DNA of 57,079 nt, the filler included, from Sluysia triapertura (taxonomy: Eukaryota), in assembly GCA_046118255.1 (NCBI GenBank). It is 4 parts of 4 records of this genome, joined end to end, with 100 filler letters (N's around TTAATTAATTAA, not from the genome) between each part and the next. Parts side by side here need not be neighbours in the genome. Positions count along the whole stretch, not along the records: positions 44,820 to 57,079 come from JBJNIA010124856.1; 3 more parts are not named here. One strand, given 5' to 3'. Shown here one piece after another: positions 16,971-57,079 of this stretch; within the stretch, counting starts at the first letter, position 1, and every line of letters starts with the position of its first letter. The position numbers and the translations under genes are program-made. Below the pieces are notes generated by a model that worked only from the letters and a program-made list of their open reading frames with translations, searched no databases and had not been told where the DNA came from.

Positions 16971-17439
16971 ATTCTTCCTAAAATTTAACAGTAATAATAA
17001 AATGCGTATTGTATCTCACAAAACTAATCTTAAAGTCCCAAAAACATAAATTACAAAGGGAGTCTCCCACCTTTATGATATTAAAATCCCTTAAAAATAA
17101 ATTTAATATTTTAAAATAAATTGCAAAGACAGTCTTCCTCTGAACTACAAAATTTAAGAGTAGTCCCACAAAAAAATCAAATGATAATAATCAAAATAAT
17201 ACTCAAAAATAATAATATTAAAATAATAAAATAAAATATGTAATCTTCACCCAAAGCATGGATTTTCTCAATGAGCCCTGTTTTTTTGTAGTGTGATTGT
17301 GTAATTGTGTTGTAAAAATTTAGAAATTTTTATTTTATACTCTCATCGTCCAATCAATTCCCAGTCTTACAACCAAACACTCTGACACAAATCATCCAAA
17401 CTTCTGAAAATCAAACCGACAATAACATTGATAATTACA

Positions 17440-18702: not shown

Positions 18703-18802
18703 NNNNNNNNNNNNNNNNNNNNNNNNNNNNNNNNNNNNNNNNNNNNTTAATTAATTAANNNNNNNNNNNNNNNNNNNNNNNNNNNNNNNNNNNNNNNNNN
18801 NN
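18703..18802. other. Artificial contig linker (N44-TTAATTAATTAA-N44)
   Basis: Identical 100-bp spacer occurs three times. TTAATTAATTAA gives stops in all six frames. Confidence 0.95.
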
Positions 18803-21654: not shown

Positions 21655-22250
21655 TGTGGTAGCCAACCCATTATCATAATAAACTTTATTAAAAATTTAT
21701 TTAAATATATTCCACATTTCCAAAAATTCATCCAAAATAATTCATCTTTCATCTCTCAACAATTCAATTTCAACCACATTTGAAGTTAACCATCAAATAT
21801 CTTCAAACTAATTCAAACACCCCAAATTCATAATCAGCATCATTTAATTTTCAATAACACATAAAGACATCACTACTTAAACATATCAAGAAAATAAATC
21901 ACATTCTTAACATTCTATAACTATTCTTGCAAACATACTAAAACTTACACCATAACTTACCTTTTTATTCTCGAAATCATTCTCTTTTAACATACTTTTA
22001 ACTCACGATCTACTAACACCTAAATAACATCTCCACCCGTTAAAAGCATTTAAACACATAACCCCATAACATTAAACCACAATAAAATCGTAAACCATTA
22101 AATCACATAAATTTATCTAAAATATTTTGTCTTTTACCCCAAAACAATCACGATCACATTCGAGAGTAATCAACAAACATCTTCAAAAACATCCAAACAT
22201 TATAAATTCACTTTCAACACATCCTCATATTTAACATCATAAATTCACAT
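21655..22250 (+). repeat. G-poor cassette leader (second subfamily)
   Basis: Starts TGTGGTAGCCAACC. Shares the TTAAACCACAA..CATTAAAT..CTAAAATATT..CAAAACAA block with 45818-46200. Confidence 0.75.
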
Positions 22251-22608
22251 TTTTTTTCTATTATTCTATTTCAATAGATTTAAATATGTTAAGAATATCT
22301 TTAAGAACATAAAAGAAAGTTTATGCTTAATTCAAAAGATAAAAACTTTGTGTTTTCAAGACAGTAATAAAAATAGCACCTTCGTTATTATTATTATTAT
22401 CACCATTTTTATCTTCATCTTTGTCACTGTATCTATTCTATTTCTAAATTCTAAATATGTCGAGAAAATAAATAAAAAAGGAAGAAATGTTTTGTGATTT
22501 AAGAGAAATGTAGAAATTTATGTTTTGTTATTATTATTATTATCATTTTTATCATTGTCATTTTATTTTGTTAATTCTATTTTTAATTCTGAATTAAATT
22601 AGTAATTA

Positions 22609-22765
22609 CCACCATCAATGTTGACATTACTAATCACTATGTATAAATGCATGTCAACATTGATGATGGCTCACCTCTCATTCACTTGGCAATAAACATT
22701 ATTAATGGTCGTCCAACCAGAGTTATCATCACTATTTTATATTTCTCTGGTTGGACGGCAAATCA
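22609..22765 (+). promoter_or_regulatory. Double inverted-repeat module, copy 3
   Basis: Stem 1 matches 18/19: CCACCATCAATGTTGACAT (22609) / ATGTCAACATTGATGATGG (22651-22669). Stem 2 is a perfect 13 bp: CGTCCAACCAGAG (22710) / CTCTGGTTGGACG (22745-22757). Confidence 0.75.
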
Positions 22766-22952
22766 GATGCATAACACACTTACTTTTCCTAAATATTGGC
22801 AGCAAAGTATGATCACATTTTCATAATAATTACTAATTGGCAGCAATTTTTCATACACATTTTCGTAAAAATTACATTAATATTATTGGCAGTGTTATCA
22901 TTATTAGACTTTAACTACAAGTATCTGACATTGCTAAAAAATTTTGTAAAAA

Positions 22953-23610
22953 TTGAAAATTAAAGATAATATAGACTTATTGATGTTATCTCCTAAATCT
23001 AAAAGTTACGGGAAACTTGATTCTGAAAATAAATCCATAAACGACAATGATGTTCTTAAAGAGCATAAAGATAATGGCGATGATGAAAAAAATTATAAAG
23101 ATGATGATCATAAAGTTGAAGACCATAAAGAAAATGGCAACGAGGTTAAACACTATAAAGATAATGATTACCAATCTAACTATTATAAAGATCATGACCA
23201 TAAAGTTAAAGAGTATAAAGATAATGACGATGATGTAAAAGAGTATAAAGATGATCATAAAGTTGAACATTATAATGATGGTGTCAATGAGATCAAACAC
23301 TATAAAGATGATGATTACCAATCTAACTATTATAAAGATTGACCATAAAGTTAAAGATTATAAAGATAATGACGAGGATGCAAAAGGCTATAAAGATGGT
23401 GATTATAAAGTTAAACGTAATAGTAAATGATGTGAATGATATGAATTGCTTTATTATGAAGGTTGTAAGACATGTAGTGTAAGAAAGGCTGAGAAATGAT
23501 TATGTAATTTAACTGGGAATTTTGTTAATTATGCCATGAGTTATATGTTTATTACATGAGTTGGGCCACCGCAGAGGGTTTGCACTAGTGGCCGATCAAA
23601 TATGTAATTT
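22953..23610 (+). pseudogene. Asp/Lys/His/Tyr tandem-repeat ORF downstream of module copy 3, frameshifted
   Basis: About 30-bp units encoding YKD(D/N/H)D(H/D)xxxx. The repeat continues past the stop at 23342 after an apparent 2-nt deletion (GAT-TGAC vs GATCATGAC). Confidence 0.55.
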
Positions 23611-26165
23611 TTAAACTTTGTTTTTTAACTAATTAACCCTTGGCAATACCCCAATGAATTTAATTAATTTAATGATAAATATAAATATATTTTCAAATGA
23701 AAATGAATTTAAATATTTTAAACATCTTTATTATGATTAATACAAGAGATTTTCATATATGGTTCATTTTAACATACTATTTGTACTTGTAACAATGTGC
23801 TGAAATTTTCAGCGCACTTCACATACAAACTTTTACAGTTTCTGTATGTTGTTTTTAACTTTTTAACATAATATCTTGCACGTTTCTTAGACAAATTTAT
23901 TCGCTCAAGTTTATGTTTTACATCTAAACACTTCATGACAAATCCAATTATATTGAGAATTAAAATGCTTAAGGATGTAACTACAAATAGCTAGTGGCAA
24001 TTTTGCCGAAATACTCAAATAAACAAGTTATTGTATATCTGTGATCTTCAAGGGATCCCGCATGAACATTTAATTAATATACAAATATTAATCCACCAAA
24101 GCAACAAGTTAATGTCTTATTATAATTATTACATCGCTACATCATTTATTTATGTATATTTCCATTTTGGCCAATAATATTTACTCTAGAAAGCGTTTTC
24201 CTATGTGAAAGATGACAACCAAGTTGTCAATCATGAAACTGTATTAGTAATGGCGATGTGAACTCAATCCTAAAACATAACAATATTAAAGAAATTCATA
24301 AACTAACTAACACCACTTTTAAAAACTCAAAAAATTACATAACGAAGATATTAACTTAGATGACAATGTAGAGATAATAAAGCTAATGAGTATTAGAATA
24401 ACAGCTGCTCTTCAATCTGAATCCAGTTTTTAAAACCAATTTTGCATAATCAATTATTTAGCCAATTTTTAAATCACCTGAAGAAAGTGATAACACAAAT
24501 GAATTTGGAAATCAATAACTAAAGAAAAACAATTTTCAAATTTTACTGCATTACGCATTAAAGAATTTTTACAAAATTGTTTTTTATGTACATTTAAAAT
24601 TATCTTTCATAAGCTTATCAATTTATTTAATTTTTATTTTCTTTAGTTTAGCGAAATGGCTTGTTCGTGATTTAAATGAAATTAATTTTATGCAGTATAT
24701 TTTTATTAATTATTCTAGTGTTCTCGTCATTAAGATTGTTTTTTCTGCTAGTTTAGTAAGTTGGTCTAAAGCAAGTGAGTTTTCTACATCATCAAGATGA
24801 TGTTTTATTATTTCCATAGGATCTTCAACCTTACCAGAAATATTCGTAATTTGAGACATATTCGAATTGGATGATATGACTACAATTAAAGATATAAATA
24901 ACAAAGTGTGGATTTTCAAAAGATTGAAAGCTGTATTATCGAGTCAGATAGTGATGTTAAAATAGGTGCTGCAATGTATGTGTGTACTAATAAAAGTGAT
25001 AATAATGGTTGAAGAATGATAAAAATAAAGATATGTAAAGATTTTGATAGGATGTACTAATAGGCGTGGCATGAAATTAATAAGGTGTAACGTATTTAAA
25101 GATATGCAAGATGAGGTGATATAAATATAAGGTTATTAAATATTTGATTAGGAAGAATATCATAAGTAATGATAATTTAATAGGATTTGATATGTAAATT
25201 AAAACATGAAATAATACTGGTCATGGTATGAAAGCTGTGAATTATTAGATTGTGAAAATTTTTTAATGTATAACACATTTAATGCGGTATGTGATAGTCT
25301 GAATTCCCGCATATTATGTTGAAATTATGTAAATTAAAAGTGATAATAATTACAATTCTTCTTTGTAATTTTTTATTTACTCATAATTGCAGTTGTTGCT
25401 TGAAATTCCACATGATGTGAATTCATGTCATCTGTCCTCAATGTGTTAAAAATAACGAATGATGTAATGTTTTCTTATGAGATTAAACAGAAAGTATTTT
25501 ATACTAATAATTTTATTAAATCAGATTTTAAACTCTAGATAAATTCCTTAATTTATCATAATTTCTTCGAAACTCCATCTCTGAATCCTCTTAAAACTGA
25601 ACGCTTTGTCATAACTACCACTGAATTACAATGCAATACTTTTCTACATTATTTTCCTTTTTTTATCGAGCATAACTTACTACTCCGATTATAAACAACT
25701 TCTCATGTTTATTCCTGCTTAAATCTTAGAGCCTTTTGTGCTTTCCGTTCCATGATTATCAAGGAATGAATGTGCAATTACGTAAAAGTTACGCAATTAG
25801 AGAATCTAAAGTTGTACAATTAGTAATATAGGGCTCGTGAATTATGAATTATAATCGATTGAATAAATATTATTTAACCTTTTTTCACGTGTGAGTGTTA
25901 AGGGATTAATGAAAAGATATATTCTGAATATATGTGAAACAGTTACTTCATTAAAACAAATTTACTTTAAATAATTTAAATAAAATTTCATAGATATTTG
26001 GAAATTTATTTTAACGATGATGCAATTGTTTAATATCTAATTAAATAATTATTTATGCACTGTTTTTTCGAAATTACATATTGTTATTATTATGTATATA
26101 TTTATATATTTATTATTTTATAATGAACACTTGTTATAAGTGACTGTTGAATCTATAATATTTAG

Positions 26166-26674
26166 GTATAAAATATGCTTGGTTTACCTTACGCAAAAAA
26201 TATCATCATTTAGTATCAAAAAAGTCATTTATTCATTGGTTTGTCGGTGAAGGTTTAGAAGAAAGTGATTTTATTGAAGCTAACGAAGACATCCAGGTAC
26301 TAGAAAAAGATTATGAAGAACTAAGTGAAAGTACAGAAAATACAGAGGAAACTTCAACACCGAAAAAAGTTAAGCAGAGTAAAAATCAAAATAATTGTGC
26401 TACTACTAATATCGCTTCTGGTTTAAGTTCAAATAATGGTGCAGGTAAAACTGAAGTAATTCAAAGTACGAAAAATATTTCTAATGAAACTGTTGTGGTA
26501 GAAAATTCCAATACTACTTCGTATTGTCAACAACTCTACGATGATATTGTTACAACACTTGATCATAAAATACAAAATACAAATACAAAAATGTACCGTA
26601 AGTTACAGAAATTGCAACATAAACTAAATCAAATCAATAAAATTTACAATTGCAATACCACAACAACCTCTGAA
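26166..26674 (+). CDS. Exon encoding a divergent alpha-tubulin C-terminus with a long extension (no upstream exons found; may be a pseudogene)
   Basis: TTTAG|GT ATA... reads IKYAWFTLRKKYHHLVSKKSFIHWFVGEGLEESDFIEANEDIQVLEKDYEEL, versus alpha-tubulin [49 protein letters not shown]. Donor GAA|GTAAGT at 26675. Confidence 0.75.
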
Positions 26675-27019
26675 GTAAGTTTAAGTTACATTTATTGCTA
26701 ATTATATTAATCCTTTTGTTTTATGTAGAAGAGCATATTTTATGTTTTACTAATAAACGGGTTCGTCCATAATGGAATACAGGCAAAATTTAGCTTACTT
26801 ATACAATTTCATTTTAATTTTCTACTTATATGTAGATGGTCTTTGTGTGATGATATAAATTTGGGTAATATTTTAGAAGTTAGAATTGTGCATTGGTGTT
26901 GATGGGATTGCACAATTACGGAATAGTAAATGAGTAAGGAATATTTGGAACTAAAAATGTAGTAAGAATTCATACAAAAACATGGGTAGAGCATAATAAA
27001 ACATTTAAAGATGAAGGCA

Positions 27020-27950
27020 TCTATGATCATTCTGGATTTTGAGGAATGATTTGGAGATGAAACCCTCGAGGAGGCATTTGAGTATCCTTGAGCTCTTGAG
27101 CCCTGGGTCCATTTGAGACTTCATCAACTTATAAGAATCTTTAAGAAATTTTAGTAGCATTATAAGGTGTTTGAAATATTTGAGAAGTAAAGCTATTAAC
27201 CTAATAATTAACGTAAATAAGTATAAAAAGGAATCAAGGAATTAAAGCTTTTAGAATCCCCCGAGTGGCTTATAAAGTACCAAACAACTTTAACCCTTTC
27301 AATTCTACGGGGATACATAAGTCCCAGAGAATGTTCAAAAATTTCAAAATCCGAAATTATGTAAACATGTTCCTTTACTTATTTACAGCACATTTAATTC
27401 AGTTATACAGAAATATCTTCACTGGCCAAAAGTCGTATTGAAAGGGTTAAATATAATAAGTCAAAAATGGATTAGTTAATTAAAATCTTAATTAATTTAA
27501 TTAAGGAAAAGTACGTTTTTTTGAATAACGTTTGAATTCGGAATACTATGTATGTTTTACAAAGATATTTTTGAAAATATGGTTTGACTGAGCTTTAATA
27601 TTGAATTAAGTCAAATTTTAATTAATTCTCAATTATGAAATGTTGAATTTTTAATATTTGGATTGATTAAAAGAGAATGAATGATTGCTGTGAAAGAGGA
27701 GAATCTGGAGGTAAGTGGTTTGTTTAAGAATAAAAACCTTAAACATTTTTCATTAGCAAATTCGGTGTGAAATATTGAAAATCAATTAAACTCTAAAAAC
27801 TAAAGTTAAATTCATTTTTTATGTACGTCGACAGTACCGATGGTTATTTTAATGTCTTAAGCAATATTTTACTTAAGTAAAATACATCGAGCAGAATAAA
27901 AGAAAAGTAATGGCTTATCGTTGATCATTTTTGTGTTTTGTACCTGTTCA
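27020..27950 (-). repeat. Dispersed repeat segment B, interrupted by a MITE
   Basis: Reverse complement aligns with 17440-18400. Confidence 0.7.
27294..27446. mobile_element. piggyBac-type MITE (153 bp)
   Basis: TTAA-CCCTTTCAAT ... ATTGAAAGGG-TTAA. Confidence 0.8.
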
Positions 27951-32494: not shown

Positions 32495-32594
32495 NNNNNN
32501 NNNNNNNNNNNNNNNNNNNNNNNNNNNNNNNNNNNNNNTTAATTAATTAANNNNNNNNNNNNNNNNNNNNNNNNNNNNNNNNNNNNNNNNNNNN
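32495..32594. other. Artificial contig linker
   Basis: N44-TTAATTAATTAA-N44. Confidence 0.95.
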
Positions 32595-32619
32595 CAAAGT
32601 TGGGCAATCCCAACAATAA

Positions 32620-32925
32620 CAATTAATTTATTTCTCAAATATGTTAAAGACTTTAAATACTAAAGGAAGTCAAATGCTTGTCGATGTTCCAAGAGTACTT
32701 AAAGGTTACTAAGGTCTTAAATGATCTAATGGTTCACAAGTTCAAAGGTGCCTTGATGATTCGAAAGGTTTTCCAAGTCCATCTCAAGTTTCCATAAAGT
32801 CTCAAAACCTTATATAGGTCTTTGGAACTCCAAGGTATTCTTTAGCTGTTAACATTATTATATATGTTTTCACTTTCATGATTCTTATTCCAAACATGTA
32901 TATCATGTTCAATCCATCATCTTGT
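32620..32925 (+). repeat. Dispersed repeat segment B (3' part)
   Basis: Aligns with 18130-18400. Confidence 0.75.
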
Positions 32926-33013
32926 ATAAGTTTTTCCTTCATTTATAGTCCTATACATTTCTAACTCATCTATTTATTAACAGTTTAGCAATCCCTATAA
33001 ATATATATATATA

Positions 33014-34511: not shown

Positions 34512-35706
34512 TTAGTCCACAACTTCCATTTTATTTTCATTATTTTCTCGCTTCGCTTTTCGTCGATTTGCCGATAGTTCTTCTGCTTTTTCCACTAAAC
34601 CAGACAATTTTCCTTCTTCGGCTAATATTTTCAACAATTCAACAATAAAAGGAACATAATTGTGACGTCGACGAATGTTTTCAATTCGATATTTTTCATG
34701 CTTATTCTTTTCTACTTGAATACTGGAAATTATTTGTGGTATTTGTTCTTCCTAAAAAAAGATAAATATTTTTTTAGAAATTTAATTTAATGTAATTAGA
34801 ATATGAATACGACTTTTTCGTTCTAATTTACATTTAATTTAGTCATCAATTTCTGAAACTATGTGAAACATTAACTCAAACGTTTTCATATGTCACTGAT
34901 TTATAAAACAATTTTTACCGGATCACCAGCTTCCTGCAATAGTTTTAATTGTTTCTCTAACAACTCCAGTTTATCGGGAACTAATGCCATTATATTGAAA
35001 AATGTGTTTGAATATTTATTCATTCGTTCAACAATAACTGGTTTAATTGTTTCAATCCACGTTTTACCTTCTGAAATTTCACCCAAATCAATAGGACCAT
35101 CTTGTAAACCATCTAGCTCATATAATCTACCTCCAATAGGCATATACCCAATAAAATGATACACGTCCTGATTATCACAATAACTTTTATCTTCTAATTC
35201 ATAAAACGTTGTTGACCTGAAACTATTATGAACTTTACGAATTTCATCAGAATTCGATATTGTTAAACCTTTAGTCTAAATCCAAATACTATAGAAGAAT
35301 AAATCTTACACAAGAATCAAATGTTGAACAAAATTCTTTTAAGTCTTGTAATGTTTTGCCTAATTCAGCATCTTTTAAATTAAATAAAATATTCAATATA
35401 GCCTGTGTTGCACATGCGTTTGTAATAACCTTAAAATTAACATTAAATTTAAAATATGCAAACCTGCTTTGCAAAAAATATGTTCTCTAATTTATCTTGG
35501 TCAGTAATTTCTCGTTTGGTGTTCAATTCTTTTTCCCATTTAAATAAAAATATTATTCCATATGGTTCCGACATATTATTCATATAATCCAAATCAATTA
35601 TTTCTTCGCATTCAATACCATTTACTCCAAATCCTTTAATAATTTCTGTAAAAACTCCTGGGTCACTTTCAATTAAGCACCATTCTCCTGTATCTCGAAT
35701 AGCCAT
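34512..35706 (-). CDS. UCHL5: Ubiquitin carboxyl-terminal hydrolase L5 (UCH37), 4 exons: 35706-35464, 35429-35310, 35275-34919, 34751-34512 (319 aa)
   Basis: Motifs GEWCLIESDPGVFTE, FFAKQVITNACATQA (catalytic Q/C), YHFIGY..LYELDGL (H/D) and C-terminal ENIRRRHNYVPFIVELLKILA. Three phase-0 GT-AG introns (34, 34, 167 bp) give an open 960-nt CDS. Confidence 0.96.
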
Positions 35707-36430: not shown

Positions 36431-37482
36431 ACAGAAAACATCAAATAATATGTGGACATCAGATAGTAGGTGTAACAAATTGTAGGTGGAGTTTAAAAAA
36501 TTTTTTACACCTACTATTTTAACAGTAAATTGTTTTTGTTTAATAATACAGGTCCTATTAATACAATTTTGAATTAGTTCTTGTCATCAACCCCACTACC
36601 ATGACGAAAAGAACATTCAGCATAGCTTTCAAGTCACAGTATTTATGGAGACAGGCAACACGGCCTATTCCGCAGCGAAGCACTTCTCTATTCGAGACAA
36701 AGTCGAGTATGCGGATACAGTATTTAAACAATGGTTCAATAATAAGGAAAGAATTCAAAAACAACAAAAGAGTTTCGGTTGCAGGTAGAAAGCGTATAGT
36801 GTGGGATTTATGCAGAGCCCACATATCCGAAAAGGTTAAAGATCACTGTGGAAGGAGAAATATTCATTTGATAGTTATTCCCGACGGTCTCACATCATAT
36901 CTTCAAGCGAGCGATATTGGAGTGAATAAGGAATTTAAGGATAAAGTTTTTGAAAAGATAAACCAGTGGAAGAACTCGAATTCCGTTCAATACACAAGAG
37001 TCGGTAATCCCAGACCGCCCGAACATGACGTGGTGAATTCCTGGATTAGTATTGCTTGGAATGTACTATCCATCAACATCATTCAAAGATCAATCAATGC
37101 AGCAGGATTTTCTGCAAATTATTCTGATTGGCATATAGCAAACCATGATATATATGGTGAAGCTTCCTTTGAAAAGTATCTATCAGAAGTTAACGAAGAC
37201 AATAACCACGCAACAACGAAGAAATGCTCGATGATGATGAGTTTGTTATAATTGATGAATAAATGTCATTGTATTTTTTAATCTTCTATATAAAAGCTTC
37301 TACCTAAGATTTTATTTGTTTAAGAATAATTTTAGTTTTTCAAATTCTTGTTGAATACAACTTTATTTATTGCACTTTTTTATGAAAGCATCGAATAATA
37401 GGTATAATCAAATAATAGGTGCATTTTTAAAAATACATCTATTATTTAAATAGAATGACACCTACTATTTGATGTTTTCCGT
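36431..37482 (+). mobile_element. pogo-family DNA transposon, internally deleted (about 1.05 kb)
   Basis: TIRs ACAGAAAACATCAAATAATATGTG / revcomp ACGGAAAACATCAAATAGTAGGTG, with TA flanks. Subterminal TAGGTG/CACCTA repeats. Confidence 0.88.
36601..37251 (+). CDS. Truncated pogo/DDE_1 transposase
   Basis: IVWDLCRAH...VIPDGLTSYLQASDIGVNKEFK matches the DDE_1 pattern LxxDxxxxH...IPxGxTxxLQPxDxxVNxxFK. The HTH region and first catalytic D appear to be missing. Confidence 0.8.
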   Translation: MTKRTFSIAFKSQYLWRQATRPIPQRSTSLFETKSSMRIQYLNNGSIIRKEFKNNKRVSVAGRKRIVWDLCRAHISEKVKDHCGRRNIHLIVIPDGLTSYLQASDIGVNKEFKDKVFEKINQWKNSNSVQYTRVGNPRPPEHDVVNSWISIAWNVLSINIIQRSINAAGFSANYSDWHIANHDIYGEASFEKYLSEVNEDNNHATTKKCSMMMSLL

Positions 37483-38904: not shown

Positions 38905-39510
38905 ATACAAAGTGATGAATTGAACATGATAAGCATTGTTGAAATAAGAATCATGAAAGAGAAAATATTTATAATAATCTTAACAGCTAAATAATATATT
39001 AAGGTTTCAAGGACCTATATAGGGTTTGAGACCTTATGGAAGCTTGAGATGGACTTGAAAAACCTTTAGAAGCATTAAAGTACCTTTGAACTTTTGTGAC
39101 GTTGGCCTAAAATATTTAAATAACATAATTACCATTAATTTTCTGGATATTATTAGTGTCCGATGCGTCACTCCTGGTTGTTTTGTCTTAATTGGATTGT
39201 AATTTCTTTGATTTTATTGTAAACGCTATTGTTATTTTTGTCGTTTTAGTGATTCTCATCATTTAGTAAAGATATTTATTGATAATAAATTATGTTACGA
39301 ATTTTTGTTTAATAGTACATTATTGTCTTGGCTTTGATTTTGATAGTCAAGAACTTAAATGTGCGATATTAGTTATTAATATTATAAAAGAGGATTACCA
39401 CAAAATCATAGTTTACATTTTGTTTTCTTAAATTATTAAGATTCTTTTAAGCTAATTAAGATAATATTGAGTTATCATAACTAATAAATTTTAAAGACGC
39501 AACAGATAAA
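38905..39510 (-). repeat. Dispersed repeat segments C and B joined
   Basis: 39510-39100 matches segment C and 39095-38905 matches the end of segment B, in the same order as at 16.5-18.4 kb. Confidence 0.7.
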
Positions 39511-41091
39511 ACTTATAGAATTAAAACTAATGGTTACAATTATAAATCTTTTAAAAGTTCCATGTGTCAGCTAAGAGAAGTTATCACCAAATCCTTAGTA
39601 GCTATCTGGCAAGAGCAATTTTACTTGTGTTTAGTTGACGTTTGTCCTAAACCTTATATCGTTGATTTTTGATTTAACCTTGAGGTTTAATTAAGCAAAA
39701 TTATTTTCTCTACTTCAATTAAACAAAATTTTGTTTTCTCTAAACTTTAAATTTTAGATACTCATTAAATTAGAATAAAAATTAAAATAAAAATACATAC
39801 TTTCAAATATATAATCCAAATAATTTATTAATTAAATTTCAAAAGTTGTATTAATAAATTCAAAGTATACACATTATAAATCGATAAAGATTAAAATCAC
39901 ATTCATATAAAAATCAATAAAGTCACAATTACATACAACAAAATCTTTATTACACAAAAGGTTTTAATTATAAAGTATTAATTTTTTATTCTTGCTAGTC
40001 TTTGGTTCTTGTTATTATTGTTTATTAATCAGTTTATTAATAACATTTCATTTTAGTTACCTTTTCTTGATTAATCGTTAATTCCAGATATACTTACTAA
40101 ATTATTTTGTTAAGAGTTAAGACCTTCTAATTTAAAGAAATATGGAATTAAACTATACACAAACATAATATTTAATCTTGCCAGCATACAAATGCATCAC
40201 CATAAATTGTAGGCTGTAAGTGAATCTATTTTATGTACTTTGTGAGTTAGGATAAAATACTTGCAGATGTGAATAAGAAATTACTACAATAAAGTTAAAT
40301 ATCAAATTACCGGTGTTCATGGTGAAATAAACCTAAGCAAAATTTAGTGACGAATATTTTTTCAAATAAAATTATAGTTAAAATGTCAGATACAAAAAAA
40401 TCTTATTATCTTTGTTGAATACATAACAAGATAATAATAATACATGAAATTAAGAAGTTGAGCACTTTATATAATAACATGTTTACATATTAATAAGGCT
40501 TCTAGCTCACTATCTTTATAAATGTACTTAATTTAGAACTAAACCATCCTGACAATAAATGTAAAGTATTTTCGCAATGACTTTATAATATGTGCCAGTA
40601 CCATCCCAGTACTATCACATTCTCTAATAAACCTTTAATTTCTATAAATTTAACCATACAAAAGGGTGAAATATTTATATCTTTGAATTTATTCAAGAAT
40701 CAGGTAGAGAAATACACATTGAATAGAAAGTTGATGATAATAATTCATTTTGTGCCCAGTTTCTATTTTAATCACATACACTGCTTTAGTTTTAGGTAGC
40801 TTCCTTGAAAATATTCAACTAAATACTGATAATAATAAATCATAAACTGTAATATGTTACATTAATAACAATTTTTTAAATAAGATTTTTAAAATATTAC
40901 TTAATAATAAAAGAGAATAAAATAAAATATTAACTTATAGCGTGAGCTAATGGCAAGAAATTAATTTTTTTAAAATTATTCATTTGTTGTATTTTAAAAT
41001 TGCTACAATATATTTTTCTAAATTCTATTTGATATTAAACAAACAGAAAAAAATTTATATAAAAATACAAAAAAATTAGTTTAATGATAAA

Positions 41092-44719: not shown

Positions 44720-44819
44720 NNNNNNNNNNNNNNNNNNNNNNNNNNNNNNNNNNNNNNNNNNNNTTAATTAATTAANNNNNNNNNNNNNNNNNNNNNNNNN
44801 NNNNNNNNNNNNNNNNNNN
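44720..44819. other. Artificial contig linker
   Basis: N44-TTAATTAATTAA-N44. Confidence 0.95.
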
Positions 44820-45026: not shown

Positions 45027-45480
45027 ATGTTTGAACTGGAATATGTACACACATATTTCAAAATGCGTTTCAATGGTAGATGGATTCGAGCTATTATTGA
45101 TAACAGAGCTACCACATCTGTAATAAATTATAATTTTTTAACTACATGGGAACTTCTGTTTATGGATCCGCCACAAGCAATACTTTATAATGTACCAATA
45201 AATATGAATGGATAAATGGGTAAATGATTATATTTACGTTTGGGGAGATTCACCTTTTAATTTAATAATTGGTTTAGATATACTTGATAAGTTGGATGAC
45301 GTAGTTATACATAGTAAGTATGGTCTTATAAAATTTCCGCAATGTGCACAATTGCTACTTCCTCAGGTTGTTGTTCTATATCTTAACAATGACATTTCTC
45401 CGATTCATATTCCAACACCTTGTCCAGTATTACCACCTGGTCAGTTATGGATATATCATCTACTGACTCATGAATGTTAG
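45027..45480 (+). pseudogene. Degenerate retropepsin (LTR-retrotransposon-type aspartic protease), frameshifted
   Basis: MRFNGRWIRAIIDNRATTSVIN (ALIDSGA-type motif, mutated) and, in the next frame, FNLIIGLDILDKL (ILGxDFL motif). Confidence 0.75.
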
Positions 45481-46557
45481 CTGAAAAAGTGAAAGTAATT
45501 ATAAGATTAAGAAATCATCCTGGACACCGTTACTAGTATTAATGATTCTGTTTTAAACTCTAAATGGTATTTTTAAATCAATAGATATCGTAGAGGATGA
45601 GGAATATAGAAATATATGCAGCAATTAATTTAATGGAAAAGAAAAGTATATCGATTACAAATATTTACAATGAATATTTGGAAACAAAGTTTAGTTCAAA
45701 TTTGATATTTACTGCATTTACTTAGAACCTCAATTTATTGGTAAACCACATCATGTAGATAAAATTCCACGTTATCTGCAATATGCATATAGACCAATGC
45801 TAATAGCATTCGCATTGTGTGGTGGTCAACCTTTCACATTTTATAAAAATCCCTTTTCACAATATTACAAAACCATATAAACACTCAAAATATACAATTC
45901 ATATTCAAAAGTCAATATAAAACAATATCAAATCAAACCAACACATTATACATAAAACCTTATCCTTAAACATTTTAACATTCTCACGTTTATCTCCTCT
46001 ACATTCACCAAAACAATTCATCTACTAAAGTCATTTTATATCCACAGTCTCATAATATTTAAACCACAACAGCATTCTAAATCATTAAATTACATTAAAA
46101 AGTTACCTAAAATATTGTATCTCTCATCTCAAAACAACTCAAGCATAATCATATTCCAAAGTATTTAGACCATAATCACTTACATGTTAATAACATATCA
46201 GCTAGAAACATTATCTCAACATTAGAACGAGGTATCATTAAGACTGGTAAGTTAATCAGAAAAACCAAAGATACAAGAAAATATCATGTTCCTTCTTTAC
46301 CTATAACTTTTACATATGTTAAAAATGTTAAGACATAATAGAAAGATCGTGTTTATTAAAAGAGATATAAGAATTTCTGTGATTTTGGATAATAATAATG
46401 TTAACATTTTTTAATTTTTATTATTTTTATTTACAATTAAAAATATAAATTTGTTTTTAAACTACATTGATTTACAATGACAATGGTTTAGTGATAGTGG
46501 TTTACACATCAATCATATGGTTCATCTCTCAATTAATTAGTTCTCGATCTTTATTGT

Positions 46558-46619
46558 TGGTCGTCCAATCAGAGTTATTCTAATCATTAATTTTGTACGT
46601 TTCTCTGGTTGGACGGCCA
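46558..46619 (+). promoter_or_regulatory. Inverted-repeat module, copy 4 (stem 2; stem 1 degenerate at about 46460-46515)
   Basis: TGGTCGTCCAATCAGAG / CTCTGGTTGGACGGCCA. Confidence 0.75.
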
Positions 46620-46799
46620 GAGAAAATTTCTAATAAAATTTTTAGAAAATTTTTATTAGTAACAGCTGTTAAAAATATAAAGAATTTTTCTTACACAATT
46701 ATCACTGGTTAGACGATAAAAATTAATTATACTAATAAAAGAAACGAAACAAAAAAAGATTCAGATTATAAAATTAAAGAAAACGAAGAAATCGTTTAC

Positions 46800-47779
46800 A
46801 TGAGTTATTCAATTGATTACAGTAGACCTTTAGATTCACTGAAATTAACTGTAATTAGAAATTCTACTGTTAATCATGATAATGATGTAACTAAAAGATT
46901 GAAAAGTTATTTCACAAATGATGATGATGATAAAAATATCAACGAGATTAATAAGGAAGATGATGAAGAGAACGACGACGATGGCGATGGAAATATCAAT
47001 AAAAATAATAATGAAGATGATGGAGAAGATGAAGATTATGATCAAGAAAATTTTAAAAGTGATTTGGAAACTAATGCGAATAATAATAATAATTATAATA
47101 GGAATCAATTCACACCATCAAGTTCCTCACAAAACACCTTGGTCGATATACGTTTAAAGAATGTCATTCATGAACAAGATATTAAATTATATGATTATAG
47201 ACTATGCGCAGAAAAGATGCATGAAATATCATTACAAAGATAAAGCAATTTGATGATGATAAAATTACTGAGAAAACTGTTAGCATGTGAAATCTTATCC
47301 AACGGAAGGATCCAGCTATTAATTCTGTTGGCACGCAAAATAACAAAACATATTCAATACTATGTACTTATAATGCTAACCTGTATGGAGTATGTTCGAG
47401 ATTCAGATTTACGTGTACACGTGCACATACAATCAGTCAGATGCAGGAATTAGTATCAAACAACGATCAACAGCTAACTCATAGAAACAGGATGCATCAA
47501 TTATTAATGTCATTATATGACAATTCAACCGATGAAAAATTCGATTCGAAGACCAAATTGAATAGTCAAACCAGCAGTATGAATAGGGTTAAAGTAAAAT
47601 TTTATAAATTATACCACAGTAACTTATTGGTTATATTTTTCACTTCAGATTCTAGAATTTGTTTAAATGTAGCATGGCACGCTTTGGAAAAACTTGATTT
47701 AGTAAATATAATGACATTTTTTAGTAATAAATTTAAAAAATGTGTTGTTCTTATTATATTGTATATTGCCCTCAATTAA
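46800..47779 (+). pseudogene. Acidic N-terminus plus CCCH zinc-finger ORF, fragmented
   Basis: D/E/N-rich ORF 46800..47243. In the frame of ORF 47441, 47363-47428 reads CTYNANLYGVCSRFRFTCTRAH (C-x9-C-x6-C-x3-H). Confidence 0.65.
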
Positions 47780-47955
47780 TATGTTATGCAAATAATAATT
47801 TGAGTATTTTTTATAATTTTTGTAACTTTATTGTCCTAATTAACGGAAACTTATTAGTAAAATTCCTGATAAATAATAAATTTTCACTAAATTGTATTAT
47901 ACTATAATCATTTTTTTACCATTTTTAATTTAATTTCGTTATTTAATCAGTGATT

Positions 47956-48091
47956 ACTACTATCAATGGTGGCCTTGTTAGTTGCCATTGATAGTGGTTG
48001 GCTTTTCAACGTAAAAATAATTTGTGTTATTACTGGTTGTCCAATCAGAATGGCTCTCTTCATTATTTTTATCACTCTGGTTGGCCAGCTA
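47956..48091 (+). promoter_or_regulatory. Double inverted-repeat module, copy 5
   Basis: Stem 1: ACTACTATCAATGG (47956) / CCATTGATAGTGGT (47985-47998). Stem 2: TGGTTGTCCAATCAGAATG (48034) / CACTCTGGTTGGCCAGCTA (48073-48091). Confidence 0.75.
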
Positions 48092-48306
48092 ATAGAAATT
48101 CACTGTGAGGACATATACGTGTGCAAAAATTTATACATTATCAATTTAATGGGAGTCAAAAAATGTTTGCAAAGTGAGTAATGTCTACTGCTGAGTAAAT
48201 ATAGTAGTATTTGTGTTTATCAACAAAATAATCTGGCTGTTAAAGTTTATTTTTCTTATCATAAAAGCGCAAATTATGAATTATCTATAATCATATCGTA
48301 AATACA

Positions 48307-49611
48307 ATGGATTTTCTAGATTTAATTATAGACAAACATTTCTTAAAGCGAAAATCAACTATAGATCTGAGATTGCAAATAATTAAACCTACAAATACGA
48401 ATATAACGACTTTAACAATTGAATTTCAAGCTACCAATACATTCAACACAAGTACTTTGTTAAAATCATGTAAGTATAATCGAGAATATCATGTTCAGTA
48501 ACGACAATAATGTTTATATATTAGTACTTTAGTAAAAATTAATGAATCTTTTCTAATTTATTATATTTATTTACCTACACTCTAATCCTATGTTCGATGC
48601 CAATGTCCCAGGAGAATTTATTAATCAAAATTTAGAGCAGACTATTACCTCTATAAATTGCTATGAAAATATATTTGATGTTATAAAATGTGAAATTTGC
48701 ATTTCGAGAACAATACGAACTTAAGCATTGAAAACGTTATCAGGATTTTCTCTCGTATTTATTTAATTCTAAAAGCTAAAAGATCAAATGGAAACTTGAA
48801 AGAGCATGCCTTTCATGAAATTACAATGTCGATTCGTGCAGAACTATTTGAAAATTATAAAGATGAATTTGAGATGATCCAAGGGATGTTGAGTTTCCGA
48901 ATGGAAACAGGTGCAGAGCTCGCACCAATGATTGTTTGTATAATTTACAGTTATTCCGTCACTGGTAAAGGAATACTTATGGCCGATATACGATTGAAAG
49001 AGGATAATCTACTAAACACTAATATCATCAAAATGTTTATAACAAGATCAATGAATACAGGCTTAAATTTAATTTCAGACGAACTTCTACTAATAAATAT
49101 ATCCCAATTATATATTGAATATAAAGAAAAATGTAAAGAAGATTCTAAAAAAATTTCTGTATGTCATTATACTATTCCTTCTAAGTGTCATCGTTTTAGC
49201 CATATATCGAAGAGTATAATATGTATTCCATCAGTTCCTAGCAATTCAATGTTTCGTAAATAGTCCAATAAAGCATTAATTACAAGTCAACGCATTAGAA
49301 CTGCATTTTGCCCATATAGAAGTAACCTAAATGGTAGGTATACGAAATTCGGAATCAATTGTTTATGTGCGCAAACGATGAATCAGCTGGTGAATCATGG
49401 AGCCGAATGTACTTATTGCATGGATCACTTGTTCAGACTTACGAACTTGATGAATTGTATTGAAATAACAACTTCGAAAATATATAACAAAGTTAATTAT
49501 ACTGATTATAATAAAGTAATTTCCTTTTATTATCACACCAAAAACAATTTGATTTTCATTTTCTTTTTTGATAGCGAAACGTGGATGACCAAGAGCACCG
49601 AAGACATTTAA
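48307..49611 (+). pseudogene. Fragmented ORF with a degenerate CCCH finger, downstream of module copy 5
   Basis: ORFs 48307, 48697 and 49378. The last two are in frame across one TAG. 49309-49374 reads CPYRSNLNGRYTKFGINCLCAQ. AATAAA near 49649. Confidence 0.6.
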
Positions 49612-50349
49612 AGTTTTAAATATCCATATTTTTAAATTTTATATTTTGAATAAAAATTTTAGTTTATAAATTTTCTTTGTTCAATCATAAACTTTTAAAC
49701 TCAATTTTATATTTAAGATCGTTGAACATTAATTTAAGAATGGAAATTTTAGAATTTAAGATAATAAAAGGTTGCATTATCTTAAATCTATTAACCTATT
49801 TTCGTATAAATTAAAACCATATTTAGTAACAAAACATTTTTATCCACAACAAATGTCAAAGCTGTTATTGTCGGTCTGATTCTCAAATAAGTTTGGATGA
49901 TTTGTTTGAGACTAGGAATTGACTGGATGATGAGAGAGTATAAAATAAAAATTTCTAAATTTTTACAACACAGTAACAATGACAATTATGCAATTTCCAG
50001 TAAAGATCCATGCATATGGTAATGTTCTTGTTTATTTTTATTTTTGTTATTTTATTATTTTAAAATTAAAATAAGATAATTAATTGATTTTCTTTTAACT
50101 TTATTTTTGATTTTATTTTAATATAATTTTAATATAAGTTAATTTTGTGCTACTTTTGTTGTAAGTTTTTTATTTTATTTTCAGCCATTTTTAGAGTATT
50201 TTTGTGAGGAACTCTAAACAATTTTTGTAAAAGATTAAATTTGATTTTCAGCCATTTTCGAACTAGATTTGTGTGAAACACCCTACGCAATTTATTTTAT
50301 CGAAACATTAAATATTTCTACTTTAAATATTAATGTTAAGTTTTAGAAA

Positions 50350-50800
50350 GGATCTCTGCCCAAAAATTTTTATTATAATTGTGATTGTTCTTAGTTACGT
50401 TAACTAAAAATATTTAAGTAGAATAATTATTATTAACTTTCTAGATATTGATATTGTTAGTGTTTGTTGTGTCACTCCTGGTTTTTCAGTTAGATCGGAG
50501 TATTTTTAATATTATTATAAACGCTATAGTTAATTTTGTCATTTTAGTTATTTTTGGTATTGTTTGATGGAAAGTCATACTAATAACAATAAATTCTAAT
50601 TTGTTTTTTGTTTAATGGTAAATTATTGCCTTATTTTTGATTTGATTTTAAGAGCTTAATTTTGAGGAATAGTTATTAATATTAAGAGAATTACTGCAAA
50701 ATTACACTTGCTATAGTGACTACTTAAATTTTTAAGATTCTTTTAAGTTAATCAAGATAATATTGAGTTATCATAACTAATAATATTTAAAGACGCAGCA
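50350..50800 (-). repeat. Dispersed repeat segment C
   Basis: GTCACTCCTGGTT core and AAGATAATATTGAGTTATCATAACTAATAA shared with 39100-39510. Confidence 0.75.
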
Positions 50801-51240
50801 GTAATTCGAATTTAAATTTAATTTTACAGTCTTAAAATTTTCGATATTTGTTACCATTACGCCCAATTGCCATTATAACTTCAACGCAATCTAACAAAAA
50901 AACTTCACATTAACGAACATGTATAAAACACAAACACGATCTTTACAGCACGTCTCACTTTAACAATTATGCACAATTGTATAATCGTCATTATGAACAT
51001 TGTTGCCATTATTCTATTTTCTCTTATTATTGTTACTGCTCTATTTATGATTTTTATATTTTCTACTCGTGTATGTACGTATTAATAACAACTCTTGTCA
51101 TAATCTTTAACAAAATCAATCAATAAACAATCAAAATAAAAATGTGACACTAAAAAACAACAATTAATTTAATTGAATTATAATCAGAATCAGAATTTTT
51201 AAATTCAATTATCATAACTAGAAGTAACTGCCAATAGCAT

Positions 51241-51641
51241 CAAACTCCTGATTTAATGGATAAGATGTGTAATTTTGTTAACATCAATTCTTACAAAGAT
51301 GAAATGATACTAAAGAAATTATTTCACTGGTTTAATTGGCTTAATATACCTCAATGTCAAAGTGTTCTGATTCATATCAATTTATTGATTAATCCAAATC
51401 GTGAGAAAAGTAAACGTTGAACAACAAATGTGGAAATTTATAAATTTAGCTGCAGTTGCATTATGAGTTGAAATTACTTCATATTATTTATACCGTTTTC
51501 GAACTTACAGTGATCCGAAAATTCTACGAACAACTAAAACTGGTCGATGTGGAGAGTGGGTTGATTGCTTCAGATTAATTTTAATTATTTCTTGTAGCAC
51601 GTTATGTTACGGATTTGGTCGATCATGTGTGGTGTGAAGTT
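51241..51641 (+). pseudogene. NGLY1: Peptide:N-glycanase (PNGase) transglutaminase-domain fragment
   Basis: LKKLFHWFNWLNIPQC, RFRTYSDPKILRTTKTGRCGEWVDCF and RYVTDLVDHVWCEV match PNGase LLxWFK..FxWVN, RFPRYNxPxxLLxTRxGRCGEWANCF and RYVxDxxDHVWTEV. In-frame TGA at about 51418, plus deletions. Confidence 0.85.
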
Positions 51642-51704
51642 AATGGAAAACAATAGGTAAATTCAGTTCATCGATTAACTCGAGATGAAATTAAAGAACT
51701 ACTA

Positions 51705-51910
51705 TGCAATTGTGTGTTATCTGTGTTTCAGGTACAGAATGATAATATAATTTTGATAGTGGATAATGAATCATTATATAATTCATGTGTAAAACGACTT
51801 TTCATACATCAACCTACATTAAATAAAATAAATCGTATTATTTTTCAAACTATAAATTCATTTACTTTGTTATGCATTTTGTTTTCCACTAAATCAATTA
51901 GATTCTTAAA
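51705..51910 (+). pseudogene. Divergent alpha-tubulin internal fragment
   Basis: NCVLSV..IVDNESLYNSCVKRLFIHQPTLNKINRIIFQTINSFT..SIRF versus alpha-tubulin [42 protein letters not shown]. Confidence 0.75.
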
Positions 51911-52306
51911 TTTTGAGCAAGTTTGTTTGCCAGGCTTTAATTTATTAAAAATATAGGAATTTGGATATAAATTAAAAACGTAAGCAAATTTATAAATAAT
52001 TTTTCTTTTATGTTTCTAACTGGACAATGGGTTCTGTTTTCTTCTTTAATGGAAATTATCTTCGATTAATAATTTTGTTAGTTATTTGTCCGTCTGTTAT
52101 TTAATGAATTTCTTAATCTATTTAATTTAATTTATTATTAATTATGTTAGTTCACAATACATTTTATTATTAAATTCAATTAACAATACATATTAAATTT
52201 ATTAATTTATAATTTCTGTTAATATTAAATTTATTATCAATAATTTACTAATAACATTATGTTAGTTCATATTCACAATAAATGAATTATAATCATAGTA
52301 ACAATA

Positions 52307-52338
<32 letters not shown>

Positions 52339-53329
52339 GTTAGTATTCACATTTTAACTGATTTCTGGTGTTATATTTGCATCTATTTTGATTCGTGGTG
52401 TTTCTGGAAGTGAATTAAGATTGAAAGATTCGTAGTCATACTTACTTCTGATACTTTTTGATGTTTAAAAAGATATACTTTGCGTTTTTATCATTTTTTG
52501 AGTTGTAAAGTGAATTTTCATATATAATTTGATATTTTTAATCTTGTAAATGATGGAGATACAATACATTCGAATGTTTTTATTTTCATGGCATTTTCAA
52601 CAACATTTACATTTTCGAAATATTTCTTTCAACAGGCTGAATGAGGAGTCCGAGAATGAATGCATTTGAAATGATTTATTATGAAATACACTGAAAAATG
52701 TAATAAAATCTGTTTTATTTTGATTTAGCAAGAAGTCAAGAAACATTATGGTTGTGATGCTTATGATTCCGTTGACATAGAAAATGTTGGAAATAGTGGA
52801 TCTGCATATTCGCATTTCGACGAATTTATTGCTCATGTTAGTTTAGAATGTTCTTCCTATTGTAATATAATTATAATTAATACGAGGATTCAGTAGTCCA
52901 TTATGAATGACAGTATCGACGAATACAACAAGTAATATTTTCATAGACGAATGAGGTAATTCCGGAAAAAAATCGATATTAATTAATTTTAATTATTAAT
53001 AAATTTAATAGGTGCAAGACAAATAATCAAAGATTGGTTAGAAAGCATTGCACATGTCACAGTTATAGTTGAACTTATTAAAATGGTCACTTTTGATTTA
53101 TTAATACACGAAGATGTTCAGTAACCATGGTGGCATGATGCAGAAACAAAGCCAAAGTCGTCAAAAGAAGACAAAAGATGAGATGAGAGAAAATGTGAAG
53201 TGTTTAAAATAAAAGTATAATCAATTGAAAGAATTAAATTATAAGACACAATAAGTAAAAATTAGTGATATAATAGAGATAAAGAAGTTTTGAATAAAGT
53301 TGTTGACTCTATTCGTAATTCTCAATAAA

Positions 53330-54770
53330 TTATTTGTAACTAACATTCAACTTATATAAACTCGATAATGCATTAATAATTTGTTTACAATAAAGCTCGA
53401 CCATCCTGTTTTTTGTCATTGCATCGTCATCGTCAGGATCGGTTTCAATATTGAATCTAACTAACATGTGACCATAAAAGACAACTGTAATTTTGTGATC
53501 AGAATTGGTTCCATAAGGAGTACATAGGTAACATAGTGATTCATACTTGAGAAACTGTGGCATTTCACATTGATCATTTTGCCGATTATCAAAATTACTC
53601 GACTAAGTTCTGAGAAATCCCCTACTTAAGTACTAATATTGTCTGCAATGCTATGTTTGAATTCCTTCATTATTATGTCGACCGATATTCTATGTTTCAC
53701 ATCTAAATGTAAGTTGTTGAAATAAGCAGTGATGTTGTTATGTAATTTCTGACTCAATTTGGCTACTTCAGGTCGGATTAACACTTTTATATTAGTTTTA
53801 TTCACCGCGAAAATTTCGTGACTAGCTTCCAGAGTTTCATCTTTAGACTAGATGACGTTATTAAATATTTGATCTATGTGAATGCTCGGACAAAAAGATA
53901 AAACTACTCTGATACGATTACCAATCAAACTATTATGGTAATCTAAACAGATAGAAGTCATAACCGAGTGTAAAATTTCACTTAAGTAATCAGGTAGTGT
54001 TGTTTTCATGATTTCTTCTTCCATCATTCCGTCGTACTTATCCATATGACTTCGATTCTCTTTAATAATTGCTTTACTTTTTATATGGGTAGATGCAGAT
54101 ATTTTAGAAGTCTTATAAACCTTTGGACTGACAGTAACAATTTCTTTCGCCATCGAAATGATAAGTTGAATAGGCGATTGATTTGTAAAAATTGCAATAA
54201 AATTTGATTCAGAAACATTACCAAATTCATAATAGCTTTGATCATTAACAATTACCGACACGATTAAATGCAATTTAAATCTACTTATATTTAACCTTCT
54301 TTCTGTTGCTGATTTTTTACTAAATATTCTTGAATTCCTTGATAAATATCAATTAAATTGACAATCATTTTGTTGTCACCATCATAAATATCATCTGCTG
54401 AAATACAAGACAACAATACAATTAAAATTTGTTGAAATAATACTTCGATAAGCCTATTGATATTAAGTATACTAGAAGATTTATCATTGAATTATAGATG
54501 AATATCATTGAGCAAAGAATTAAAAATTTGTTTATGAATTCGAATTAATAACTTATCTCCTACATTCTTTAAATCACTTATACAAGTATACTTTTCTTCA
54601 TCTTTGAAACAATTATCTGATAAAATTAATAAAATGAGTCGTACTGTTGTGTTGCAACACAGACTTGAACAACATATTCGATAAAAATACGTAATTATTT
54701 TTTGAGCACCGACTATAATTTTTGTAGTAATATTGTCCAATCCAAATAAGTTTAATTTTAGTATTGATAT
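53330..54770 (-). pseudogene. Fragmented orphan ORF downstream of module copy 6
   Basis: Chain of minus-strand ORFs (54492-54794, 53848-54273, 53330-53563) broken by stops. No confident domain. Confidence 0.45.
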
Positions 54771-54773
54771 AAC

Positions 54774-54937
54774 ATTGATTGGACGTCCGATCAATTTCTA
54801 TATTTAGGGAGCCACATAATTATATAGGCACGTATGCAATTATGATGTAACACTGATCATATTGAATGTAATTAACTGTCATCAGTCGACAGTCAAGTGA
54901 CATGCTGGATAATTTATCAACTGTCGACTGGTGACAG
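54774..54937 (-). promoter_or_regulatory. Inverted-repeat module, copy 6 (minus strand)
   Basis: Stem 1 matches 17/18: CTGTCATCAGTCGACAGT (54876) / ACTGTCGACTGGTGACAG (54920-54937). The minus strand then reads TGATCGGACGTCCAATCA (cf. TGATTGGATGACCAATCA in copy 1). A TAT-rich spacer lies upstream at 54960-55060. Confidence 0.65.
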
Positions 54938-55319
54938 AGTAATATAATTACATAAAATTTTAGCCAAATGATAATGACCATATTACTGGTCGTAGTAATG
55001 AAAATAACAGTAATGATAATAAAATGATAAAATAAGAATGTTTTTAATGCTAATAATAGTACAATTTGACAAAATACCAATTAAAATGTGACCAGATTAC
55101 CGAACTTTATCTCTGTATAACTTGGTGTCTAACTAAATGTACCTAAATAATTCTGAGTGTTGTGATAATGATATGTTAAAGGACATTATCATGATCCTTA
55201 TTTTAACATCGCTACAATTAAATAAATTTATTATTTAATAGGTTTATTCGAATTTAGTAATATTAAAAATGTTTGTTTAACAAAATTATGTTCTTTGCAC
55301 ATTAAATTAATTTTTTACT

Positions 55320-56909
55320 TTATTCCTTAACAAAGAAAATAGAATAGCAACAGCTGAAACTATTTATTGTATACAAGTATTTAATGTTTGAATTTGAATT
55401 TTGATAAAAATTATCCTTCTTCCGAATATGCCTCGTCATTCTACAAAATTTGGATATTGTAAATATGTAAGTGATTTTATAATAAATTAAATCAAAACTT
55501 GATATTACATTAAGGTCCTGTTGATACTTGATGTCCGCCAACAAGTGTTGATTCTAAGAATATGGTCGGATGATGAATATAGGTTGGATGATGAACCAAA
55601 GAGAGCAATAGTTTCAAAAGCATCATGACTGTAGATACAATCTCCGCCATATCTGTAACATTGTCCATTTTGTAATCTTTCGTATAGACACAAGCCATAT
55701 TTATAATATTTGAATTGATGACCATAAGGTTTTACGTTTTCAGATGATAACATGTCATCACCATAATAATGTTTTAAATTTACAATTCTTGTTTTCGCTT
55801 TTGTCTTAATATTCATTAATGACATACTTTTATTTGTCGTAAATCGATATCGATGGGAACATGTATAGGTTCATCCTTTTCTATCTCGATATAATTTAAA
55901 ATATTAAGATAATTGGTATAGAATCGTTTCATTTGCAAGTTACGAGATATCTAACTAAACATGTTTCTAACTAATGATATCATTTTATTACGTATGAATC
56001 AACATCGATGAGGAACAGTATACTTTTATCTATTTTTATTAAGATATGAAATGAATTATTAATTTGGTTGGTATCTAATCGTTTTATTTGAAAGTCATGG
56101 GATATCTCGATAAATTTTCTTGTAACATCTTGTTTTGCATTTTGTTTGTCTATTAAGTTTAGCATACAATTTAGCATACAACTGATTTCGATAAGTTTCA
56201 CAAATTTCAATTCTATAATCGGTTCTTTAACAAATTTAAATGCTAATTGATCAAACTGTTCCATTAAGCAAAATTTTAACAAAATATTATCCAAAAGTTC
56301 ATGTTTAGATAGCATTGTTTCCATAATAATGACTTTATGCGAGAATAATCTTAAAATTTAATATAAGTTTCTAGATATTCTGTTAAAAGATAATTAACTA
56401 ATAAACTCAATTATGGGGTTGTTGTATGTGTTTGTTTGAAAATTAAAATGATTTAGAATCTTTAGAAGAGTCATTGAGGGCGTATCATTATAAAACAACC
56501 GAACGTGTTGACGAATTTTAGACTTATTAACATAATGAGTGAAATTTAAAGACTTGAGTACTTTAAAGTTACACCATGAAAAAATTGGATCATTTGCATT
56601 CTTAAATAATATAAGTTTATTTTGAATAATTATATGCTCGTCGATACAACACATTTCATATTGAGAAAGTTTAATTAAAATTTTGTAATTTTTGTATTTT
56701 AATTCTTTTATAATTGTGATGTATTTAATTTCTTGAAAACTCTTATAAAACTTTTGCCTTTTGTAGAAATTATTAATTTTTTTAGATCTTTCGTTATTTA
56801 ATCTTAAAATCTTTAGGCTTTTCTTATTATTACATTGAGGAGATTTATGAACATTATACGAACAAAGAGAAATAAAAGATTTAAATTTAATATCTATTAA
56901 TCTACACAA
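55320..56909 (-). pseudogene. Fragmented ORF chain containing an intact CCCH zinc finger
   Basis: ORF 55505..55825 has YKYGLCLYERLQNGQCYRYGGDCIYSH (C-x9-C-x6-C-x3-H, 55625-55690). Same-strand ORFs 56394-56909 and 55980-56324 lie upstream. Confidence 0.6.
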
Positions 56910-57079
56910 AATTTGTATTATACTAAATAATGTTTTTAATATTATTGATAGATGGCACGTCTCTTGCTCCTTGGATCCATTTTCATTCTTTAAAAAGATA
57001 AGTTTTCTAAAAAAGATAATATAATGATAATAATTGTTTATAAAAATATAAATAAACTTTGTTATAAAATTTTTACTTT

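Follow-up and report, generated by a model that had tools for sequence, protein, structure and literature searches.

Introduction

Proteins of the TIS11/tristetraprolin (TTP) type carry two tandem CCCH zinc fingers with C-x8-C-x5-C-x3-H spacing. CCCH fingers as a class are defined more broadly, as C-x4-15-C-x4-6/7-C-x3-H, and 79% of mouse CCCH motifs are C-x7-8-C-x5-C-x3-H, according to the accessible portion of the source (PMC2478707). The fingers of Unkempt come in two clusters of three, and ZnF1-3 bind A/U-rich RNA weakly, at 2.4 uM, as given in the available sections of PMC12136788. Two groups of mobile elements also serve for comparison: the DINE-1/HINE elements (non-autonomous Helentrons), whose subterminal repeat is accompanied by an inverted copy close by and which have been linked to gene duplications (PMC4067079), and the Burro elements of planarians, which bear extra domains and accessory ORFs (PMC6431247), both as described in the accessible parts of these papers. 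Planarian genomes are AT-rich and repeat-rich (PMC11410931, in the portion available), which we take as background only.

Here we analyse a single window, the whole 57,079-nt stretch of DNA, in which three sets of ORFs (A, B and C) each carry one CCCH finger, decayed in B, located near the C-terminus. A literature search whose coverage was without most subscription journals returned no paper joining Unkempt with planarians, and literature listings and the beginnings of abstracts held nothing on such a lone-finger family.

Results

Sequence setting and host

The window has a GC content of about 25% and is eukaryotic DNA, interrupted at 18703-18802, 32495-32594 and 44720-44819 by 100-nt linkers in which runs of N flank a 12-mer with stops in all frames. 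It probably consists of four joined contigs; as we treated the four pieces as separate contigs, order across the linkers carries no evidential weight. The finger loci all lie on the last piece. The host is probably a flatworm, given the presence of ordinary host genes, including a GPCR that is 46% identical to Schmidtea mediterranea GCR089, its nearest named relative. A UCHL5-type gene with two 34-nt introns lies at 34515-35706 (-), and at 26159-26701 (+) a start that looks like a tubulin tail by eye, without a Pfam match, runs into an unrelated low-complexity extension. Another noncoding repeat family, which is very abundant and bears no relation to the module described below, occupies 49863-50853 (-), 16476-18400, 39093-39551, 32618-33000 and 27457-27945.

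A lone Unkempt-type CCCH finger

Scanning the window in six frames for C-x4-15-C-x4-7-C-x3-H returned exactly two matches, finger A at 47363-47428 (+) and finger C at 55625-55690 (-), both complete and both C-x9-C-x6-C-x3-H. This bears out the original prediction of a hidden finger upstream of Met 47441, with identical spacing at the second site: finger A is in the same frame as ATG 47441, upstream of it, within the stop-to-stop frame 47291-47779. Finger B, the RTAFC site at 49309-49374 (+), is in register with A and C and has decayed, with Tyr at the second Cys and Gln at the His. Fingers A and C thus fall within the CCCH definition given above and B outside it; A and C, moreover, sit in frames of more than 120 codons. 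In 100 windows simulated with an order-3 Markov model, the exact 9-6-3 spacing occurred 0.01 times per window (one of the 100 had one, none had two), and any CCCH spacing 0.51 times per window, with two in 12 of the 100. As the 9-6-3 spacing was picked post hoc from 48 possible ones, a fair chance figure is, by our own arithmetic, about 12% divided by 48. The spacing is uncommon, considering the share of mouse motifs that follow C-x7-8-C-x5-C-x3-H, yet already known. One contig of DNA run X1 (which may be the source sample, and is not independent) covers the region of finger C, 55606-55932, with 0 differences, so finger C is no assembly slip.

A TIS11/TTP-type finger had been proposed for comparison, but Unkempt proved closer. 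Finger C aligns gap-free to Unkempt (PDB 5elh_A, residues 91-124; E 0.0045-0.011), at what is presumably the third Unkempt finger, judging in part from its position in the chain. A profile of fingers A, B and C ranked 5elh_A first, again gap-free (E 0.0068), whereas the same profile reached tristetraprolin (1m9o) at E 2.8 and required gaps. Nor do the TIS11/TTP features occur here, since the spacing is 9-6-3 and there is one finger per ORF. In Pfam, the highest-ranking family for both A and C was zf-CCCH_UNK (PF25427), which scored C at 28.9 bits (E 1.1e-6) and A at 13.9 bits (E 0.052), each under the curated cut-off of 31.1 bits; the Pfam search gave no match for finger B, the zf-CCCH family matched none of the three, and finger A alone retrieved no finger from the PDB. 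Two exact matches against 0.01 expected, together with the independent Unkempt match of C, establish the predicted motif as a genuine CCCH finger.

Neither the CCCH scan of the window nor Pfam nor, for the upstream part of B, a PDB search revealed another Unkempt finger around A, B or C, a result that covers the visible part of C, whose far N-terminus lies beyond the window. With a single finger and no other Unkempt finger nearby, A, B and C are not classed as Unkempt orthologues. Upstream in B, a stretch that by eye could pass for the remnant of a first Unkempt finger had zero Pfam and PDB matches and was rejected.

Broken ORFs and diverged copies

In ORF set A (46800-47779 (+)), an acidic, N/D-rich frame (46713-47243) precedes the finger frame (47291-47779). 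The set is broken in this copy between about 47233 and 47290, none of the GT..AG stretches of 20-60 nt bridges the break singly, and in the window it is probably a pseudogene. ORF B (48694-49611 (+)) has 305 codons and one in-frame stop at 49261-49263; it is broken here and its finger is dead. ORF set C (55505-57079 (-)), opposite in orientation to A and B, is made of four segments with three frame breaks and continues past the window end. For each of the breaks there is a GT..AG stretch that could close it, at 56406-56350 (57 nt), 55991-55951 (41 nt) and 55827-55805 (23 nt), and C is possibly a spliced gene that is still intact; a GT..AG stretch of given phase spans about 35% of random sites, and at 23 nt the smallest candidate intron falls short of the 34 nt of the UCHL5 introns. 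C also contains a 155-nt tandem duplication (55983-56105 and 55828-55950 (-); 0 of 2000 shuffles), with units of 41 codons each that are 69% identical. Identity per codon position is 27, 29 and 29 of 41, with pS 0.26 and pN 0.32, values similar enough to indicate no codon-level constraint and to argue against strong selection. A third unit was considered and found to be unsupported. AlphaFold models were too poor for use (mean pLDDT 31.7 for B and 38.0 for the second segment of C).

That the region is multi-copy is borne out by DNA run X1, which contains 59% of the words of 46500-50000. Placed at 80% likeness, at which depth is no measure of copy number, 8834 X1 records fit 45800-57079 and cover 30 of 30 bins, and 6555 of them are less than 95% alike. 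Differences total 1861 and indels 258, with site-level counts drawn from the 40 and 12 listed: among these, 6 contigs differ at 47398, 38 at 48996 and 15 at 49263, the maximum at any one site inside ORF B being 38. One long diverged contig stretch, 49295-49662, has 56 differences. Taken together, the contig counts and the long diverged pieces point to many diverged copies of the region. At the stop of B, 15 contigs give another letter at 49263 and all of the depth differs (460/460), so that this stop either belongs to this copy alone or stems from an assembly error; near 47233, at the break in A, 6 contigs show a one-base indel difference (depth 145/235). The frame break of A and the stop of B are not common to all copies. 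Amid repeated DNA, a 638-nt X1 contig matches 51043-51680 with 0 differences at low summed depth, and overlaps a broken ORF-like frame at 51450-52000 (+).

An upstream module ending in an inverted repeat

Upstream of A lies a noncoding module of about 1 kb, M (45858-46617 (+)), with related copies near 4844-6034, 13100-14200 and 21600-22760 and a partial one at 47872-48098. Its end, upstream of A, is an inverted repeat, CCAAYCAGAR ... YTCTGRTTGG (46565-46612 (+)), which folds as a hairpin (z -4.9). A second inverted repeat (48041-48084 (+)) accompanies the partial module upstream of B, and others at 5985-6033, 14154-14201 and 22713-22754 (+) end the remaining module copies, with ORF-like DNA just downstream; weaker copies were seen at 54735-54790 and about 6655-6670. 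The repeat has 5 matches in the window against 0 in 100 shuffles, and its arms covary, with 9 two-sided changes across eight rows, three of them weaker (0 of 500 shuffles). The shared upstream module is therefore real, in five copies of which one is partial. The module-end repeat resembles paired CCAAT boxes, or else the pair near the ends of DINE-1/HINE elements. M with its inverted repeat probably acts as a promoter for the A and B cassettes; the covarying arms would suit the end of an element equally well.

What finds no support is the idea that the finger is common to the ORFs downstream of these modules, as it lies within 3 kb behind only 2 of the 5 inverted repeats; of the other three, one is followed by a chromodomain fragment, one by an unnamed ORF and one by an acidic repeat ORF. 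Similarity between module copies fades shortly after the inverted repeat, and a search that allowed up to 2 mismatches found no partner arm around the upstream ends of M. The chromodomain ORF, of MSL3/MRG type, stands alone at 6073-6426 (+) directly behind a module (Pfam E 4e-14) and ends soon after the domain, and an ORF at 22950-23427 (+), also behind a module copy, is built from 30-nt repeats in which K, D, Y and H abound. A long broken ORF at 53300-54797 (-), multi-copy in run X1, starts at a weaker inverted repeat and has a CH-like DUF5745 match (E 1.2e-5, under the cut-off).

The spread of the finger by an element, likewise proposed, is unsupported. A Pfam search (E 0.01) of 96 of the 103 ORF pieces of at least 40 codons at 42-57 kb, the remaining 7 being covered in other scans, found no transposase, RT, integrase or Rep/helicase, and the same 96 pieces gave 0 matches to gag, protease, RT or integrase near the ORFs, a result that short decayed pieces could escape. 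Elsewhere in the window, the 105 of 190 ORF pieces scanned held no mobility enzyme. The sole mobility enzyme seen is a DDE_1 transposase fragment at 36562-37251 (+) (E 3e-9), on another linker-joined piece. By eye, a broken stretch at about 45030-45300 (+) is one that we take to resemble retropepsin or DDI1; it has no Pfam match at E 0.01.

Kinship of the three ORF sets

Fingers A, B and C are alike pairwise, with 1, 5 and 15 of 2000 shuffles scoring as well, a likeness inflated by the chosen Cys register. The post-finger parts alone are not significantly alike (129, 280 and 747 of 2000), nor are most of the pre-finger parts, of which the best pair between copies, among seven such pairs, reached 43 of 2000. 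Between A and B, the finger with its tail matches at iE 0.001-0.004 within the window, BLASTP gave no match between the upstream parts of B and C, and the acidic start of A compares with ORF 22983 at a non-significant E of 0.17; likeness of the three beyond the finger was lost under the shuffle tests. As only the finger regions are significantly alike, the original prediction was fair in calling the proteins otherwise dissimilar; of the single diverging RNA-binding family that it also proposed, the likeness of the fingers stands and that of the flanks does not. A single family, and with it the common ancestry of the whole ORFs A, B and C, is something we infer: with flanks that are not significantly alike, the comparisons support a likeness of the fingers rather than a kinship of whole ORFs.

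Searches for wider relatives were blank. B read through its stop had no match among 441 candidate proteins at E 0.01 (lengths 167-534 only), and the N-terminal part of C none among 2273 longer proteins, which is weak evidence. A three-sequence profile run against 1.84 billion representatives gave one hit, a 1659-aa tandem-repeat protein rejected as summed noise; this search, with Unkempt also unretrieved, is of limited reach. A metagenome scan yielded two loci, both rejected as GC-rich bacterial DNA matched in unrelated frames, and there were no matches in 48 viral contigs or in Rfam. An atlas comparison placed C near CCCH clusters (0.81-0.84) and unnamed viral clusters (0.85-0.86), which are leads only, and the N-terminal part of B near RAG1_ZnH2 (0.88), an assignment of low recognition that we did not accept.

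Discussion

Considering the finger, its match to Unkempt, the copies and the module, we put at about even the chance that these are lineage-specific, duplicated, fast-diverging ORFs with one Unkempt-type finger near the C-terminus. An Unkempt finger would have been recruited into a lineage-specific gene of a flatworm-like genome, and this gene may then have multiplied by DNA-level duplication along with its promoter-like module. A and B would represent tandem cassettes, each behind an inverted-repeat module copy, and the copies would diverge fast, leaving many broken members. Perhaps, in intact members, the lone finger binds zinc and acts as a weak U/A-rich RNA contact or an interaction module, without the specificity of Unkempt. 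A bolder version, in which a mobile module with a palindromic end amplified a family of expressed proteins based on one Unkempt-derived finger, and these proteins diversify under positive selection and serve in stem or germ cells to modify mRNA control of the Unkempt type or as decoys for it, seems rather improbable to us, and the proposed conflict of the finger ORFs with host RNA silencing or germline RNA control is unsupported.

Could the finger ORFs instead be cargo of M itself, a non-autonomous mobile element, perhaps of the rolling-circle kind, that carries or transduces downstream DNA, as was first suggested? M does recur, standing ahead of unrelated ORF pieces in at least 4 places, in one case a chromodomain fragment, a single site of M varies in as many as 67 contigs (among the differences listed), the inverted repeat covaries, and DINE-1/HINE elements have a similar pair and a link to gene duplication (PMC4067079, in its accessible part). 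However, the finger stands behind only two of the five repeats, the far end of M has no partner arm at the mismatch level searched, the ORFs appear to lie outside M, as similarity fades so soon after the repeat, neither Rep/helicase nor transposase turned up in the 42-57 kb ORFs, and the sequence upstream of C falls beyond the window; on balance, we regard such cargo as unlikely. We similarly doubt that three unrelated ORFs or pseudo-ORFs, forming no single family, each acquired by shuffling a short piece derived from Unkempt. This would agree with significance being limited to the finger regions and with the blank BLASTP between the upstream parts of B and C, but would leave aside the position of the finger near the C-terminus in all three ORFs, and the weak tail pattern, combined match and shared upstream repeat of A and B.

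It is very unlikely that the ORFs belong, as accessory genes, to a giant Gypsy/Burro-like LTR element that has decayed. Burro elements are known for such extra ORFs and domains, and a retropepsin-like stretch can be made out by eye upstream of A; yet this stretch is blank in Pfam, nothing matching gag, RT or integrase was found in the vicinity, A and B face the opposite way to C, and the term 'CCCH' is absent from the available text of the Burro review (PMC6431247). Lastly, a chance Cys/His pattern in decayed repetitive DNA might be argued from finger A alone, with its Pfam E of 0.05 and no PDB finger found, but is scarcely credible against two exact matches where 0.01 are expected, the long frames around them and the independent Unkempt match of C, for which the chance reading is largely refuted.

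Under the preferred reading of a duplicated, lineage-specific gene, a lone Unkempt-type finger reused in multi-copy orphan genes would exemplify domain recycling in repeat-rich flatworm genomes, and the ORF set would offer a testable candidate RNA-binding family. The value of this is moderate: the spacing is a known one, two of the three local copies look broken, and expression, selection and mobility are not indicated.

Among the described systems, the DINE-1/HINE elements are the closest likeness of M, which is likewise noncoding and repeated, ends in an inverted pair and includes a stretch resembling a microsatellite; the spacer of M is 22-29 nt, however, as opposed to about 3-22 bp in DINE-1, and M has neither a partner repeat at its other end nor a Rep/helicase seen nearby. 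Burro/GYPSM1 elements share the same broad host group and are known to carry host-like domains (PMC6431247, in the text available), whereas no polyprotein, LTR pair or pol domains are seen here. For the finger itself, tristetraprolin (1m9o) offers the CCCH ligand order and a loosely similar lead-in, with an alignment that needs gaps and a tandem pair that this locus does not have. Unkempt (5elh_A) is nearer, sharing the C-x9-C-x6-C-x3-H spacing, the YYK-G lead-in and a Gly two residues before the second Cys. The flanks here match no part of Unkempt, and the copies are many, diverged and often broken; and whilst Unkempt acts through clustered fingers, in two groups of three (PMC12136788, available sections), the ORFs of this locus carry theirs alone.
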